A stretch of DNA of 64,000 nt from Patescibacteria group bacterium (lineage in GTDB: Bacteria > Patescibacteriota > Microgenomatia > Daviesbacterales > UBA10151): the NCBI GenBank assembly GCA_038064895.1, contig JBBTSA010000010.1, forward strand, positions 31,725-95,724, read 5' to 3'. The translations under genes were made by a program, and so were the position numbers. Shown in pieces: positions 20,729 through 24,580 of this stretch (its first letter is position 1; the number at the start of each line of letters is the position of its first letter). The notes under the pieces were generated by a model. That model did no database searches and was not told the origin of the DNA. It worked only from the letters and a program-made list of their open reading frames with translations.

Positions 20729-23700
20729 ATGGCTATAGAACAAGACATTTTAAATTCGCAATCGATTGGTTTGGATGATGAGGCGCTTGCGAAAAAATAC
20801 CCTATTTCTCAAGAAGTTCTGGAAAAAATCATAGCTCTTCCTTCAACAGATCCTGATTATCCTTTGGAAGGGTCATTTGAAGCAAATTTTAGATCCTCTA
20901 ATAGTTTTGAGCTTAAGTATGTGATTGCAAGGGCTTTAATAACTGATGGAAGGTATCCAAATATTAGCGCTTTAACAAGATCATTTGTTCCGACGGGGAC
21001 ACCGATTGAACCAGAGGTTAAGGATTTAAAAGGCAGATTACAACTTCTTTTGGTTAAAGAGGATAGAGTTGGTCCCTTCTCAGATGAAGCTAAAGAAGCG
21101 GAAGACGCGGTGTTAAAATATGTCGACAGAAACGCGCTATTAAATAAACTACGCGGTATCCTCCCTATCCATGTTATGGGAGCTATTACCAACGCACTAC
21201 TTTTTGAGGATGTGACAGACGAGAAGAAACAAGAGAAATTAAGATCCTTCACTACCAGAGCTTTACTCAGGCCTTATTTGGGAGACATTTTGGTACAAAG
21301 ACCCCAGGGAGAACTTGATTTTAGAGATTTGGTTATTTTAGTACCTGATAAAGTTTTTAAAAGCGGTGATACTGCTACAGCGGGAATTGTAAGAGATTAC
21401 TTTATATCTCAAGCCATGAAATTATTTATCGATGGTGAGGAGGCTGGATTCAGAAGGCTTAATGACAGTATTTTACTTGAACATTCTCCTGCAAAAATTC
21501 CTTTTTTGCAGGCGGTTGAAAGTGAATTTCACGAAATTGATAATGTAAACATTCCCCCGGTGTTTCAACCCTTTGTTGAAGGTTGGTTTGCTGACAAATC
21601 CCCCATGCCTCTTTTTAGACAAAAATATTTTGTCTGGGAATTTTTGAAAAACAGAAGGTCTTTTCTTAATGGTGATACAGGAGCTACCAAAACTGCTTGC
21701 GCTTATCTTGCTATGGAATCAATAGGTGCACAGAGGGTTACTATCTTTGGTCCTGCTAAGGCAAGGAATACATGGCCAAGGGAAGCTGAAAAAATATTCT
21801 TAGAAGAAGATAAACCTGACGTATTTACTATAAGGGCGGCTAAGGATTTAGAAGATCCGAGAGTTGAAAGTACAAAATATCTTTATGTAGGCAGTGAACT
21901 TATGGGGAATGCCTGGAATAATCCAGAACTTTATAACCGTATAAAAGTGGCCTTAATAGATAGACGTCAAACCGATGGAATAATTTTTGATGAATCTGAT
22001 GAGTTTAGACATGGAGGTACAGGTTGTACCAAAATGCTTGTTGATATGGTTAAAAAGATGCAGGAAGCATACAGTCAAAGAAATCCCTTCGAAATGCCGT
22101 CAATTGCCTTAACTGGTACTCCAATTAGTTCATCCTTGGAGGATATGGATATTACCATGGCACTGTTATATCCTGACAGATTCACTCTACCAAGGGAAAA
22201 AATAGATGGTAAGTTCCCCTTCTCTATACAGGCTTTAAGAGATCCTAAAATTGCTTACTTTCTACTTCATGGGGAAAAATTAATGATTCAGTGGAGCTTG
22301 GATGATCTTTTTGGAGAAAGAGCACCAAGATTACCAGAAAATCCCCGTACTCCGATTCCAATGTTTCCATATCAAAACGTAATTTATGAATGGGTAGCAG
22401 GGCTGCAGCAACTCGGTACTTTGGCCAAAACCAGACTTTTAAGAAGTGTATTGATGAACCCTGAGCTTATTAAGAGGGTTTCCAAGGAAAGAGGTTTAAT
22501 TCCCCAACCTAGTTTTGATGATGAGGGATTGGTAAATAAACTCAGTGAGCTGCATCAAACCTGGGCCAGATGGCTAGTGGAAAAAGATCCACAAATCCCA
22601 GATGAGCCGTTTTCCGCTGATTGGATTGCTAAGTTTGGGGAAAGAGATCTCTTATTGCAATGTTTTTTTGACGAAAGATTAGTAGATGGTATAGATAGTT
22701 TAGCCAGAAGACATCCAGAAATTTCTAGAGATTGGTATTCCATGGAGGCTGTCTCGGGTAAATATTTAGCCCTTAAGAGATTTTTAGAAGAAAGAATTCA
22801 TAGAAATGGCGAGGGATATGAAACTAATGAGAAAATCTTTATAGTTTCACCTTATCACAAAAGGGGTATTACAAGATGGCTTGATGATCCAAATACAAAA
22901 GACGAGGATTTAGCAGACAATGCTTGGAGTTTATATGAATACATTATTAGCCACTGGTTCCCAGAACTACCAAGAGATATGGCCATAAATATTGATGGAA
23001 CAAGATCTTTTGCTGCTCGTGATAGAGCTGCTCAAATTTGGAGAGAACAAGGAGACAAAAACTCTTTAGTTGTAGCTTCCATGGATTCGGTTGACGAAAG
23101 CATGGATTGGGCTATAAGAGATACTGAAAGTACCAAAAATATTGAGAGAATGAATGTAATCTTTTTAGGATGGCCTTTTGGCTTTGATGAATTTAAACAA
23201 ATGTGTGGAAGATTTTTAAGACCTGGGCAATCAAAACCTGTAGATATTTTTGTTTATGAAACGGAAAATTCAATAGATCAGGGATTTTTTAATCTGGTTA
23301 GAATGAAGAGACTTCTAACTGAGATGTCCTTGGCAGGGGTGGAATTGAGCCCGGAAGATCAAGACTTTTTTAAGAGTTCAACAGCTGCAAAAAATATTTT
23401 GATAGCTCAACCAAATGTTGGCCAATCTTTTATACAGGATGTACTAAGACGGCTCAGAGGTAGAGGGGAATATGAGATTCAGGAGGAACTTGCTAAGAAT
23501 AAGGACGGTAAGTCCTTTTATGAGCTTTTTGCCCAGTACTACTTTGATGAAGGCAGAGATGAATTTAGGGTCGTTGGAAACAATGCTGAAATGGTTAAAA
23601 ATTTAATCTCTAAAGCTCAACCTAAAAGAGTTGCCTCAATAGGTGCAGGAACGTGTCTTTTTGCAAGAAAGATGGTTGAATCAGGGGTCGGGAATATAGA

Positions 23701-24580
23701 GATAAACAATGTTGATATCAACGGAGCAGCACTTCGGATTGCTAAAGAAAAATTTCCGGCCATTGGAAATATTTTGGTCGAAGGCGCATCTCACTTAAGC
23801 TCTCCTTCTGAAAGATATGATGCTTTAGATTGTTCATTTATGATTCCTATGACAAGAATCTATGATTTGGAGGGTAAGATAGTTAATGATCCAACCAAAG
23901 TTGAGCGTGCAAATGTTTTGGTTGAGTTAAGTAGGGTTTTAAAACTTGGTGGAACCGCAGTCTTATCATTTCCTGAGTCTAGCTTTGATGAAGAGACATT
24001 TAGTCGTTTCGCCCAAACACTTATTACTCATTTTGGATTTTCAGTTGCTGGCCCATCTGGAATGTCTTTTGCAACAGATATTCGACCAATAAAAAGAATT
24101 GGGTGGGTACTAACCCTTCAGAAGACAGGTACACCAACCTTAGCAGGCCTTAATCCAAGAGGACTTTTACTTCTAACAGATGAGCCTGTTATTAGCAAAT
24201 ATAAAGAAGGTAGGAAAGGTCCCCCAACTATAATAAAAATAGAATATCCAATTTTCTCCTCAAAACAATTTGAAATAAGAAATCCTGTAACAGGTGAAAT
24301 CACAAGTGCAAATAGTATACAGAATGAAGGCACCTTACCTTCGCCTCGTGAGATGGTTGAAAATATTAAAAAGGATCTATCCCAAGAGCAGTGGAGAGAT
24401 TGGACCCAGGCGAGAAGAAGGATTGAGAATCGTTTAAATCGTAGGTATGAGGAAGCTGAAGAAATTTTGGCAGCTATTTTATGGCGAAGAAACCTAAATG
24501 ATGTTAATATATGGAACAGCGAAGCTATCCAAAGAATCGTTGATTCTGAAATTAATAGAATTGTAAGAAGTAGGAGTTAA
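20729..24580 (+). CDS. 1283-aa fusion protein: an N-terminal SNF2/SF2-type ATPase-helicase core with a C-terminal class I SAM-dependent methyltransferase domain
   Basis: Motif I LNGDTGATKT (variant P-loop), motif II IIFDESDEF, motif III ALTGTPISSSLEDM (SNF2-like LTGTP), motif VI QMCGRFLRPGQ. Methyltransferase motif I VASIGAGTCLF, post-I NNVDIN, motif II DALDCSFMI, LKLGGTAVLSF. No (D/N)PP(Y/F) DNA amino-methyltransferase motif was seen. Shine-Dalgarno sequence AAAGGGAG upstream. Confidence 0.75.
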   Translation: MAIEQDILNSQSIGLDDEALAKKYPISQEVLEKIIALPSTDPDYPLEGSFEANFRSSNSFELKYVIARALITDGRYPNISALTRSFVPTGTPIEPEVKDLKGRLQLLLVKEDRVGPFSDEAKEAEDAVLKYVDRNALLNKLRGILPIHVMGAITNALLFEDVTDEKKQEKLRSFTTRALLRPYLGDILVQRPQGELDFRDLVILVPDKVFKSGDTATAGIVRDYFISQAMKLFIDGEEAGFRRLNDSILLEHSPAKIPFLQAVESEFHEIDNVNIPPVFQPFVEGWFADKSPMPLFRQKYFVWEFLKNRRSFLNGDTGATKTACAYLAMESIGAQRVTIFGPAKARNTWPREAEKIFLEEDKPDVFTIRAAKDLEDPRVESTKYLYVGSELMGNAWNNPELYNRIKVALIDRRQTDGIIFDESDEFRHGGTGCTKMLVDMVKKMQEAYSQRNPFEMPSIALTGTPISSSLEDMDITMALLYPDRFTLPREKIDGKFPFSIQALRDPKIAYFLLHGEKLMIQWSLDDLFGERAPRLPENPRTPIPMFPYQNVIYEWVAGLQQLGTLAKTRLLRSVLMNPELIKRVSKERGLIPQPSFDDEGLVNKLSELHQTWARWLVEKDPQIPDEPFSADWIAKFGERDLLLQCFFDERLVDGIDSLARRHPEISRDWYSMEAVSGKYLALKRFLEERIHRNGEGYETNEKIFIVSPYHKRGITRWLDDPNTKDEDLADNAWSLYEYIISHWFPELPRDMAINIDGTRSFAARDRAAQIWREQGDKNSLVVASMDSVDESMDWAIRDTESTKNIERMNVIFLGWPFGFDEFKQMCGRFLRPGQSKPVDIFVYETENSIDQGFFNLVRMKRLLTEMSLAGVELSPEDQDFFKSSTAAKNILIAQPNVGQSFIQDVLRRLRGRGEYEIQEELAKNKDGKSFYELFAQYYFDEGRDEFRVVGNNAEMVKNLISKAQPKRVASIGAGTCLFARKMVESGVGNIEINNVDINGAALRIAKEKFPAIGNILVEGASHLSSPSERYDALDCSFMIPMTRIYDLEGKIVNDPTKVERANVLVELSRVLKLGGTAVLSFPESSFDEETFSRFAQTLITHFGFSVAGPSGMSFATDIRPIKRIGWVLTLQKTGTPTLAGLNPRGLLLLTDEPVISKYKEGRKGPPTIIKIEYPIFSSKQFEIRNPVTGEITSANSIQNEGTLPSPREMVENIKKDLSQEQWRDWTQARRRIENRLNRRYEEAEEILAAILWRRNLNDVNIWNSEAIQRIVDSEINRIVRSRS

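Follow-up and report, generated by a model that had tools for sequence, protein, structure and literature searches.

Restriction-modification, BREX, DISARM and the proteins with which phages and plasmids counter restriction rely centrally on pairings of a helicase with a methyltransferase (MTase), and to our knowledge the characterised pairings all use DNA amino- or C5-methyltransferases. In eukaryotes, SNF2 ATPases are fused to base modifiers in fungal DNMT5 (SNF2 with a C5 DNA methyltransferase) and kinetoplastid JBP2 (SNF2 with a thymidine hydroxylase). Dyads of a DNA adenine methylase and a SWI2/SNF2 ATPase occur in the polyvalent proteins of phages and conjugative elements, of which DarB of phage P1 is the archetype (Iyer et al. 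2017, PMC5512222). In the DarB-like module, an N-terminal DNA adenine methyltransferase is followed by SNF2 and LPD36 (PMC5512222).

The window, that is the whole 64-kb stretch of DNA analysed here, encodes a protein (hereafter the hub) that resembles the DarB-like dyads in combining methyltransferase and Swi2/Snf2 motor within a single polypeptide, in lying on or near mobile elements, and in a proposed action in which the motor would carry the methyltransferase along DNA. However, the order of the domains is reversed, with the motor N-terminal and the methyltransferase C-terminal, and the methyltransferase is type-11/RRP8-like without (D/N)PPY rather than a DNA N6-adenine enzyme. Neither LPD36 nor any other polyvalent domain was recognised in the hub, which has dedicated tail-bearing partners, is restricted to CPR bacteria and was found on no viral contig. 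DNMT5 and JBP2 likewise couple a Snf2 ATPase covalently to a nucleic-acid-modifying domain, but their catalytic domains and lineages are different. RapA/HepA, the RNA-polymerase-associated Swi2/Snf2 protein of bacteria, likewise carries an additional N-terminal domain, but has no methyltransferase and was not among the best 50 Foldseek PDB matches of the hub. With type I and ISP restriction-modification systems (HsdS, HsdM and HsdR; LlaGI) the cassette would share a division of labour among specificity component, methyltransferase and SF2 double-stranded DNA motor, and variable paralogous specificity components. In contrast to these systems, it has no recognisable nuclease and no N6-adenine MTase motifs, its candidate specificity proteins are tandem arrays of a 63-aa repeat instead of HsdS-type target-recognition domains, and attachment is apparently through a C-terminal peptide.

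Table 1. Positions of the cassette genes, protein domains, motifs and putative signals in the window.
Feature	Position	Strand	Basis or remark
Promoter-like site TTGAAA-17-TAAAAT with TG, 8 nt upstream of the first operon gene	18250..18278	+	consensus match only
Partner up1, 439 aa: six tandem repeats of about 63 aa and C-terminal tail SDEANIQLERLLEVQI (19555-19602)	18286..19605	+	
Partner up2, 368 aa, pI 9.7: five repeats and tail SEEANQQLRRLLEG (20658-20705)	19602..20708	+	
Hub enzyme, 1283 aa: N-terminal helical domain, Snf2 ATPase, class I MTase, C-terminal extension	20729..24580	+	
All-alpha acidic N-terminal domain, aa 1-271, pI 4.9	20729..21541	+	structure model, pI
Swi2/Snf2 ATPase core, aa 282-868: RecA1, helical insert (547-690), RecA2	21572..23332	+	model and Foldseek
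Q-motif FRQK	21614-21625	+	within ATPase core
Variant Walker A / motif I G-D-T-G-A-T-K-T, aa 315-322	21671..21694	+	Thr in place of the second Gly of GxxxxGK[TS]
Motif II FDESDEFRH	21986-22012	+	ATPase core
Motif III LTGTPISSS	22109-22135	+	ATPase core
Motif VI QMCGRFLRPGQ	23198-23230	+	ATPase core
Class I SAM methyltransferase domain, aa 936-1135	23534..24133	+	
MTase motif I SIGAGTCLF	23636-23662	+	
MTase beta2 acidic residue within NNVDIN	23705-23722	+	
MTase post-beta4 DALDCSFMIPM	23819-23851	+	
MTase ELSRVLKLGGT	23924-23956	+	
Basic C-terminal extension, aa 1136-1283, pI 9.4: short beta elements and helical bundle	24134..24577	+	
Partner dn, 181 aa, small, acidic; tail TDANRQLERLLQSQ (25078-25125)	24583..25128	+	
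Terminator-like GC hairpin followed by T-rich run, downstream of dn	25260..25273	+	consensus match only

The hub gene is the core of a conserved operon (18286–25128), in which one to four paralogous tandem-repeat proteins precede the hub and a small acidic protein follows it. The start of up2 overlaps the stop of up1 (ATGA) and dn begins 2 nt past the hub stop. up2 is a paralog of up1 (39% identity, E 6e-69), homologs of up1 adjoin the hub gene in other loci, and homologs of dn lie downstream of the hub in five other loci, the conservation of dn being known from these locus comparisons; a homolog search with dn gave at least three proteins. The hub is the invariant core of a tightly coupled four-gene operon that forms a movable cassette. 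The cassette is rare and confined to Microgenomates-type CPR bacteria (tiny groundwater bacteria), the window's clade occurring in only seven of about 185,000 species representatives. It occupies a different site in each genome. In the window it lies between genes for tRNA-Thr and tRNA-Gly with RhuM adjoining, and no att-like direct repeat bounding the operon was found between these tRNA genes. Other loci lie inside a T4SS/relaxase/recombinase element, beside an integrase, between ftsA and ftsZ, and beside AbiEii. A phage origin of the hub found no support: viral contigs carried no relative, BFVD gave generic methyltransferases only, and the sole PHROG match was a generic large helicase family. 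Pfam, NCBIfam, PADLOC and PHROG matches revealed no recognisable nuclease or other effector in the cassette.

The hub gene is real and its motifs are not chance matches, 44 full-length homologs being found at 35-69% identity. The original prediction of an SNF2-like ATPase fused to a SAM methyltransferase holds for both domains according to model folds, profiles and conserved residues. The motifs it quoted are present in the helicase part (LNGDTGATKT, aa 313-322; FDESDEF, 420-426; LTGTPISSS, 461-469; QMCGRFLRPGQ, 824-834) and in the methyltransferase part (IGAGTCLF, 971-978; NNVDIN, 993-998; DALDCSFMI, 1031-1039; LKLGGTAVLSF, 1071-1081), and nine residues (K321, T322, D421, E422, Q824, G827, R828, G974 and D996) do not vary across a 36-sequence alignment. 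The layout of the protein needs revision. In the models, the stretch of about 250 aa placed between the two domains is no spacer. The sequence between motifs III and VI comprises the Snf2 helical insert and RecA lobe 2, and the true linker is about 65 aa long (869-935). The sequence without assignment is instead the 271-aa all-helical N-terminal domain, which had gone unmentioned. The extension after the methyltransferase core is about 148 aa long (about 130 aa in the original prediction) and matches no recognised family. The earlier interpretation was incomplete, not wrong, and the conserved partner genes are needed to understand the hub gene.

The AF2 model of aa 1-900 (pLDDT 84) retrieved Swi2/Snf2 ATPases as all of its best 50 Foldseek PDB matches (E down to 2e-14, TM to target up to 0.74); single-sequence searches against the PDB with the full hub protein and with the C-terminal half of the methyltransferase were uninformative. 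Pfam SNF2-rel_dom (PF00176) was matched by 24 of the 36 close homologs and, among distant relatives, by 25 of 31 (best E 1.5e-20). The hub of the window has diverged too far for the Pfam helicase models, giving no SNF2 or Helicase_C match at E<=0.1. Motifs III (LT[AG]TPI) and VI (QxxGRFxRPGQ) agree with the Snf2 signature (LTGTPxQN and QxxxRxxRxGQ), while motifs I and II in the window read G-A-T-K-T and DESDEF versus GxGKT and DEAHxxKN. The distant relatives share the architecture with a canonical consensus (MGxGKT and DExHNAxN), and canonical DEAHxFxN is seen in some close homologs. The alignments indicate that the Thr-for-Gly P-loop arose within a single clade, nested in a larger superfamily whose motifs are canonical.

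The modelled methyltransferase domain (pLDDT 86) has the marks of the class I fold (seven strands, a motif I of the GxGxG type and an acidic residue ending beta2), and its motifs look intact (GAG(T/S)C, the invariant beta2 Asp996 and NRVLKxGG). Pfam Methyltransf_11 was matched by 34 of 36 hub members, the window's hub barely passing (E 1.4e-4). The domain is a class I enzyme of the Methyltransf_11 type and appears to be RRP8-like (RNA-type). As had been predicted, it carries no DNA amino-MTase motif, neither (D/N/S)PP(Y/F/W/H) nor the relaxed N-x-P-aromatic form occurring in the last 420 aa of 45 full-length members, and no C5-MTase motif (PC[QK] anywhere in 0 of 45 members, ENV in no MTase region). 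Nor does it cluster with a known helicase-fused family, its profile matches being generic type-11 enzymes only. Its nearest structural relatives act on rRNA, and the nearest has no helicase partner. Nucleomethylin/RRP8 (Methyltransf_8; PDB 2zfu), an rRNA m1A methyltransferase, is only 18% identical to the hub domain, and the window's hub does not match Pfam Methyltransf_8 (PF05148). Unlike the hub, RRP8 is eukaryotic, lacks a helicase fusion and acts on rRNA. We know of no DNA methyltransferase of this class.

The up-type proteins are mostly basic (pI 9.2-9.8) and contain 3-11 units of the 63-aa repeat, in which GYW and YPGG are near-invariant while no Lys, Arg or Gln position is strikingly so. 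The repeat may resemble homing-endonuclease-associated repeats, a likeness that Pfam searches did not confirm; two weak relatives carry GIY-YIG domains. up1 matched no Pfam, NCBIfam or PADLOC family, and even homologs with 9-11 repeats gave only sub-threshold, inconsistent Pfam matches at E<=10, so that assignment of the repeat to a Pfam family was rejected. The net charge of the arrays and scattered HTH-type matches (CII, Cro, YdaS and AbiEi-N, all weak and below threshold) suggest that they may bind nucleic acid.

All partner proteins of the cassette end in one short amphipathic peptide with the consensus SP[DE]EANxxLx[RK]LLE, including dn, which is unrelated to up1 and up2. The tail is uniform within a locus and different between loci, and its co-variation between the unrelated up and dn proteins was reached in 1 of 40,320 permutations and in 0 of 200,000 in a second permutation test. 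Matching tails are encoded by different codons. Gene conversion as the source of their identity was rejected because synonymous codons differ, and the codon comparison indicates that the tail is kept at the protein level. Across the whole window, tail and repeat are confined to the three partner ORFs, the hub itself having no tail. In one locus (P0038) an up-type protein is joined to the hub N-terminus in a Rosetta-stone fusion, with an ambiguous tail-like motif at the junction. The shared tail looks like a docking peptide, for which the N-terminal helical domain of the hub is a candidate site.

The explanation we favour, tentatively and at slightly less than even odds, is that the hub is the Snf2-MTase core of a mobile cassette in which tail-docked adaptors direct DNA-tracking methylation. 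Interchangeable partners would plug via the tail into one hub site, with the N-terminal helical domain and the C-terminal extension as the likeliest places; target choice would fall to the mostly basic repeat arrays, which would bind nucleic acid; and the small acidic dn, a regulator or second adaptor, would contend with them for that site. The hub would translocate on double-stranded DNA and methylate a nucleic-acid base or something DNA-bound, making the cassette a nuclease-less functional analogue of DarB-like dyads or of type I S, M and motor subunits that may help a mobile cassette in conflicts or in establishing itself. A more specific form is a programmable marking machine in which arrays of varying unit number and surface positions read DNA sequence or structure and plug in through a locus-specific docking peptide, and the hub then writes a non-canonical methyl mark on DNA, such as RRP8-like N1-adenine methylation. 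This form is decidedly doubtful; if true, CPR bacteria would possess a previously unknown type of epigenetic, defence or anti-defence system of their own, and both its DNA-binding repeat and its class of DNA methyltransferase would be new. The MTase domain might instead be an RRP8-like RNA base (e.g. m1A) methyltransferase acting on rRNA or structured or nascent RNA, with Snf2 and partners as RapA-like remodellers of RNP or transcription complexes. We regard this as unlikely, since all structural neighbours of the motor among the best 50 PDB matches are double-stranded DNA translocases, and since the rarity of the window's clade and its varying, often mobile sites are unlike a ribosome-biogenesis factor, and a set of variable, paralogous adaptors would be unusual where the RNA site is fixed. 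Methylation of the partners themselves, recruited by their tails as substrates, is very improbable: docking peptides commonly recruit substrates to modifying enzymes, class I type-11 folds include protein methyltransferases, and GYW and YPGG are near-invariant in the repeats, but the conserved Snf2 motor is left unexplained, the unrelated dn bears the same tail, and the repeat offers no strikingly invariant Lys, Arg or Gln. A known methylation-based defence system (MADS, BREX, DISARM, type I/III R-M) whose methyltransferase is an ordinary DNA N6-adenine enzyme is effectively refuted. The hub matches PADLOC mad2 (E 2e-11), as do 14 of 31 distant members, whose helicase part also matches DrmD, DpdE, ZorD and BrxH models. 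However, the mad2 profile was built as a broad MTase profile, the mandatory mad6, mad7 and mad8 are absent and the four neighbouring proteins have no MADS matches, and MADS membership was therefore rejected.

The favoured explanation also depends on a working motor and on a tail that docks. Several features would suit an inactive motor whose Snf2 fold serves as a DNA-binding or scaffolding platform for the methyltransferase: 32 of 36 members lack the second glycine of Walker A (before Lys, 30 have T, 4 G, 1 S and 1 A, in line with the variant P-loop originally predicted), most have lost the motif II His, and the window's hub leaves the Pfam helicase models unmatched. This is quite unlikely, as the seven invariant ATPase residues persist at an overall identity of only 35-69%, the Q-motif Gln (Q298) and R831 are each at least 90% conserved in 36 homologs, and the site before Lys tolerates only small residues, with reversion to Gly in four lineages. 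P-loop ATPases that lack this glycine can be active, as is MCM with GDPxxAKS. The hub ATPase is probably active. No correlation suggestive of compensatory coupling between the P-loop G-to-T and motif II H-to-D changes was found in the 36 homologs. The tail, for its part, might be an export or transfer signal, e.g. for a type IV coupling protein, with the partners as secreted effectors and the hub as a cytoplasmic modifier or chaperone. Its strictly C-terminal position, its absence from the hub, the locus within a T4SS/relaxase/coupling-protein element and the wide occurrence of T4SS in Patescibacteria (PMC12102498) count for such a role. We consider it quite improbable, because most loci, the window included, have no T4SS genes in the flanks examined, the up-type protein is fused straight to the hub in P0038, and the partners were never apart from the hub in the loci examined. 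Translocation-coupled methylation by a tail-docked hub would, if its target is DNA, be a new chemistry of DNA methylation; with an RNA or protein target, its role would have no precedent among bacterial Snf2 enzymes. Whichever the target, the cassette is a tractable example of peptide-mediated modular assembly, offers a new repeat fold that may bind nucleic acid and a natural test of the importance of the Walker A glycine in SF2 motors, and adds to the very few accessory or mobile functions so far known from Patescibacteria.

Cluster representatives with this MTase domain numbered 442 in an exhaustive search, and both the MTase and helicase parts are shared by 73 of the 76 long ones examined. 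The fusion of a Snf2 motor to an RRP8-like methyltransferase apparently happened once, long ago. The hub N-terminal domain was detected in 20 of the 76 and the C-terminal extension in 12, and both are confined to the tail-bearing clade, the one CPR clade in which the fusion gained plug-in partners marked by a shared, co-evolving C-terminal peptide. A metagenome scan gave at least one further locus among the matches listed. The upstream partners of the distant superfamily members had no detected homology to those of the window. These distant members lie among housekeeping genes on CPR chromosomes of about 1 Mb, consistent with a cellular role as opposed to one in conflict.

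The hub, a fusion of a Swi2/Snf2 ATPase and a class I SAM methyltransferase (MTase), is encoded in a cassette, up1-up2-hub-dn, in which up1 and up2 are tandem-repeat proteins and dn is a small downstream protein. These tightly packed genes are considered to form an operon because up1 and up2 share an ATGA stop/start overlap, SD-like sequences precede hub and dn, and a promoter-like site and a terminator-like hairpin were found, both by consensus match only. The order of one to four upstream proteins without Pfam family, hub and small protein recurs in all the loci examined. BLAST linked the upstream proteins of the window and of three other loci with hub homologs, L004, L005 and L006 (E 1e-20 to 1e-130), and the downstream proteins across six loci (E 1e-10 to 1e-55). 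A second set of upstream proteins, three mutual paralogs, is found in locus L008. The ~600 residues that extend P0038, a 2071-aa hub homolog, at its N-terminus are similar to these proteins (E 1e-15 to 1e-19), which makes P0038 a Rosetta-stone fusion joining partner and hub.

Coordinates of features in the window, the hub protein and related loci
Feature	Location	Strand	Description
Large multidomain protein	window 4353-9530	minus	1725 aa
Toxin-antitoxin-like pair	window 13410-14016	minus	DUF433 protein and Mut7-C/PIN-like DUF5615 protein
tRNA-Asp	window 14050-14124	minus	
Direct repeats	window 14107-14136 / 14427-14456		30 nt, 93% identical
GIY-YIG nuclease ORF	window 14115-14378	minus	87 aa, within 14107-14456
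Promoter-like site	window 18250–18278		consensus match only
up1	window 18286–19605		439 aa
up2	window 19602–20708		368 aa
hub	window 20729..24580	plus	1283 aa, third gene of operon
dn	window 24583–25128		181 aa
Terminator-like hairpin	window 25260–25273		consensus match only
RhuM-family gene	window 25337-26323	plus	PADLOC candidate system PDC-S05
Small ORF	window 26320-26562	plus	80 aa
tRNA-Gly	window 26475-26548	minus	
PIN-domain ORF	window 37731-38144		
ftsZ	window 38707-39858		
ftsA	window 39904-41199		
N-terminal domain	hub residues 1–271		AlphaFold2 model
RecA1	hub residues ~282–545		AlphaFold2 model
Helical insert	hub residues 547–690		AlphaFold2 model
RecA2	hub residues 691–868		AlphaFold2 model
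Conjugative element	L004 1-18100 (CAZAZW010000002.1)		contains hub homolog
Upstream partner	L005 4382-7999		1205 aa
Downstream protein	L006 11819-12235		138 aa, identical in L012
Upstream partner	L013 1891-7896		2001 aa
Cassette	L021 4426-13420 (CAYIRD010000001.1)		between ftsA and ftsZ

The partner proteins of a locus, dn included, end in the same short C-terminal peptide (tail), with the exception of the small protein of L006. Apart from the tail, dn shows no relationship to the repeat proteins. The tails read SDEANIQLERLLEVQI (up1), SEEANQQLRRLLEG (up2) and TDANRQLERLLQSQ (dn) in the window, PTDLERLLEL / PTDLEKLLEV in L005, and EADELLRSLEEE / EADDLMRSLPEE in L007. The patterns are A..AL..(Y/F)F.V in four of four proteins in L008, SP(D/E)EANEDLDRLLE in five of five in L020, and SPD(E/D)ANEQLRRL(L/I)E in four of four in L021. 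For a co-variation test, up-type tails were scored against dn-type tails and the matched-locus sum was compared with permuted loci. Among the 40,320 permutations of eight loci, only the identity permutation reached the matched-locus sum; with ten loci, none of 200,000 random permutations did so (observed 477, mean 277, sd 30). Identical residues of the window tails have identical codons in only 4/9, 3/8 and 1/7 cases. The similarity is thus kept at the protein level, and recent gene conversion as its source is contradicted. Across the 64-kb window, repeat and tail are confined to the up1, up2 and dn ORFs.

Most simply, the tail would be read as a peptide that docks on one common partner; the hub is proposed as this partner because it is the only other constant component of the cassette. 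Among 76 long superfamily representatives, the helicase part is common to 73 and the MTase part to all 76, while the hub N-terminal domain was detected in 20 and the C-terminal extension in 12. Both extra domains are detectable only in the tail-bearing clade; two distant members with readable partners have neither extra domains nor tails. The tail-less downstream protein of L006 and L012, where the three upstream partners bear tails, may be a truncation or frameshift.

Tandem repeats of ~63 residues (six in up1, five in up2) follow the pattern GYWT-E-I--EA--F----G-L(T/S)---L-------L--AI---YPGG---L(R/K)--LG(I/L). The number of units per protein ranges from 3 to 11 in 53 homologs, many of which come from contigs equal in size to those of hub homologs. 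Conservation is strong at the scaffold positions, and variability is highest at positions 21, 24, 25, 28, 36, 37 and 40. No family for the repeat was found in Pfam, NCBIfam, PADLOC or annotated PHROG, where matches were weak, scattered and of HTH type. The up-type proteins are mostly basic (pI 9.2–9.8) and the dn proteins acidic (pI 5.0–5.7; 7.8 in L006). Some upstream partners are very large (L005, L013). In the L005 partner the repeats and the tail are confined to the C-terminal end, and the remainder of both giants is unclassified. P0097 (613 aa) and P0098 (561 aa), distant up1 matches weakly related to the repeat proteins, each carry a GIY-YIG nuclease domain, and the repeat HMM recovers just short fragments in them. 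A module related to the repeat may therefore occur in homing-endonuclease-like proteins.

The hub ORF was present exactly where originally predicted, and every motif peptide quoted in that prediction was found in it. The 44 full-length homologs (identity 35–69%) and the invariant residues indicate selection on the encoded protein. A 36-sequence alignment shows invariant residues in Walker A (K321, T322), Walker B (D421, E422), motif VI (Q824, G827, R828) and SAM motif I (G974), and at the end of β2 (D996). The window hub is very diverged: it barely passed the Pfam Methyltransf_11 model and matched no Pfam helicase model, while 24 of 36 family members matched SNF2-rel_dom and 34 of 36 Methyltransf_11. 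A large unassigned segment had been noticed, and it exists; its supposed place between the two domains was not borne out, since the models assign it to a 271-residue all-helical N-terminal domain. In the models, the stretch from motif III to VI corresponds to the Snf2 helical insert and RecA lobe 2, and the helicase-to-MTase linker proper comprises ~65 residues. The finding is real and its initial interpretation supported.

The AlphaFold2 model of residues 1–900 (pLDDT 84, pTM 0.78) had Swi2/Snf2 ATPases as all of its 50 best PDB matches in Foldseek (E down to 2e-14), including SMARCAD1, ISW1, Snf2h, Chd1, Mot1, Rad54, INO80, DDM1 and CSB. The variant P-loop reported from sequence, GDTGATKT, is a clade state: T precedes the Lys in 30 of 36 homologs, G in four, and S and A in one each. 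Most members have DESDEF as motif II, some close homologs DEAHxFxN, and the two deviations are not correlated among homologs. The Q-motif, Walker A Lys/Thr, Walker B Asp-Glu and motif VI arginines are kept at ~40% overall identity. Because these catalytic residues are kept and only small residues precede the Lys, we judge the ATPase to be functional. The glycine in question is dispensable in some active P-loops, such as those of MCM helicases (GDPxxAKS). The variant is a minor clade trait, probably a tolerated one.

The model of residues 870–1283 shows a canonical class I fold (pLDDT 86). Support from sequence is weaker: generic type-11 enzymes were the sole matches of MTase family profiles. 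When the profile covered the MTase core of the whole superfamily, the nucleomethylin/RRP8 structure (2zfu) ranked third (E 8e-6), and its alignment extends furthest, among the top matches, into the subfamily-specific C-terminal half. Methyltransf_8, the Pfam RRP8 family, was matched by 3 of 31 distant members. The (D/N/S)PP(Y/F/W), relaxed N-x-P-aromatic, PCQ and ENV motifs were found in none of the MTase regions of the 45 full-length members, so the call of a non-DNA-type MTase proves right. Its closest known relatives appear to be RNA-base methyltransferases, without firm family membership.

Tentatively, we favour a composite model. Interchangeable partners would dock on the hub through their tails, the basic repeat arrays would pick the nucleic-acid target, and the acidic dn would compete or regulate. 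The Snf2 motor would move along dsDNA and offer the target to the MTase. Candidate methyl targets are a DNA base modified by RRP8-like chemistry, RNA, or a DNA-bound protein. As no nuclease is recognisable in the cassette, it would mark rather than cut, a mode of action that speaks more for a role in anti-restriction, establishment or epigenetics than for classical restriction.

An RNA-directed enzyme would fit the RRP8-like features of the MTase; next to a motor matching Swi2/Snf2 ATPases throughout, we regard it as unlikely. A pseudo-ATPase scaffold, to which the variant P-loop might point and the kept catalytic residues do not, is somewhat less likely still. That the tail is an export signal would suit its C-terminal position and is improbable. 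Even more doubtful is that the partners are protein substrates of the hub. An ordinary R-M or MADS-type DNA m6A system is very improbable. The hub matched the PADLOC mad2 profile (E 2e-11); this match is uninformative, since MADS profiles were built from HHpred alignments against PDB at ≥50% probability and the MADS authors regard MAD2 as prone to false positives. Mandatory MADS genes were absent among the hub neighbours, and MADS membership was dropped.

The MTase region, searched exhaustively as a profile, retrieved 442 cluster representatives, 117 of them at E ≤1e-10. In almost all of the 442, the MTase domain is C-terminal in proteins of 1200–1800 aa. Distant relatives match SNF2-rel_dom strongly and have canonical motifs (MGxGKT, DExHNAxN, LSGTPxPN, QxxxRxxRxGQ). 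One, in a Candidatus Peregrinibacteria genome, has housekeeping gene surroundings and a large unannotated protein immediately upstream. The fusion is an ancient Snf2–RRP8-like MTase protein, paired in Microgenomates CPR bacteria with tail-tagged repeat proteins. Public annotation of such fusions stops at 'SNF2 family helicase / UbiE methylase', and no published characterisation was found in the literature. In contrast to the hub, the MTase–SNF2 dyads known from mobile elements carry a DNA adenine methylase, and their two domains come in reverse order (PMC5512222). As a variation on helicase–methyltransferase pairing, the cassette is new and uncharacterised; it is of more interest than the variant P-loop and is open to experimental testing.

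The window comes from a 0.1 µm-fraction assembly of Hainich groundwater, and NCBI lists its proteins under 'Patescibacteria group bacterium'. Seven loci encoding a hub relative were found among 185,579 species representatives, with Daviesbacteria, Gottesmanbacteria and Levyibacteriota as named carriers, and none in viral contigs. The cassette behaves as an accessory, mobile unit with a patchy distribution, and its insertion site differs from genome to genome. In the window, otherwise ordinary chromosome, it lies between tRNA-Thr and tRNA-Gly beside the RhuM/PDC-S05 gene; at other loci it adjoins a tyrosine integrase, is near Fic/MazE, or is beside AbiEii. In L021, a whole cassette (three repeat proteins, hub and small protein) splits the normally adjacent cell-division gene pair ftsA and ftsZ, which are adjacent in the window. 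The closest NCBI hub homolog (67% identity, L004) lies inside an apparently complete conjugative element with a VirB4-like ATPase, a TraC-like protein, two T4SS pilins, a Replic_Relax relaxase, a TraG/TrwB-like coupling protein and a serine recombinase. In Patescibacteria, T4SS linked to a relaxase are reportedly rare (PMC12102498). The label of the L004 record, 'uncultured Gammaproteobacteria', is probably wrong because the hub family distribution is CPR-only.

The RhuM-family gene (Pfam E 2e-102; PDC-S05 E 5e-133) directly follows the cassette, ahead of tRNA-Gly, in the window only and not in the other loci. The small ORF after it overlaps tRNA-Gly and is probably spurious. The toxin-antitoxin-like pair is located between a squalene/phytoene-synthase-like gene and tRNA-Asp, and a further PIN-domain ORF was found elsewhere in the window. 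The 1725-aa protein is built from PKD-like, bacterial Ig-like, fibronectin III and purple-acid-phosphatase-N domains; presumably it is a giant protein on the surface of the CPR cell. The GIY-YIG ORF is flanked by direct repeats, the first of which reaches into the 5' part of tRNA-Asp; the arrangement resembles a small GIY-YIG element inserted beside this tRNA gene with target duplication.
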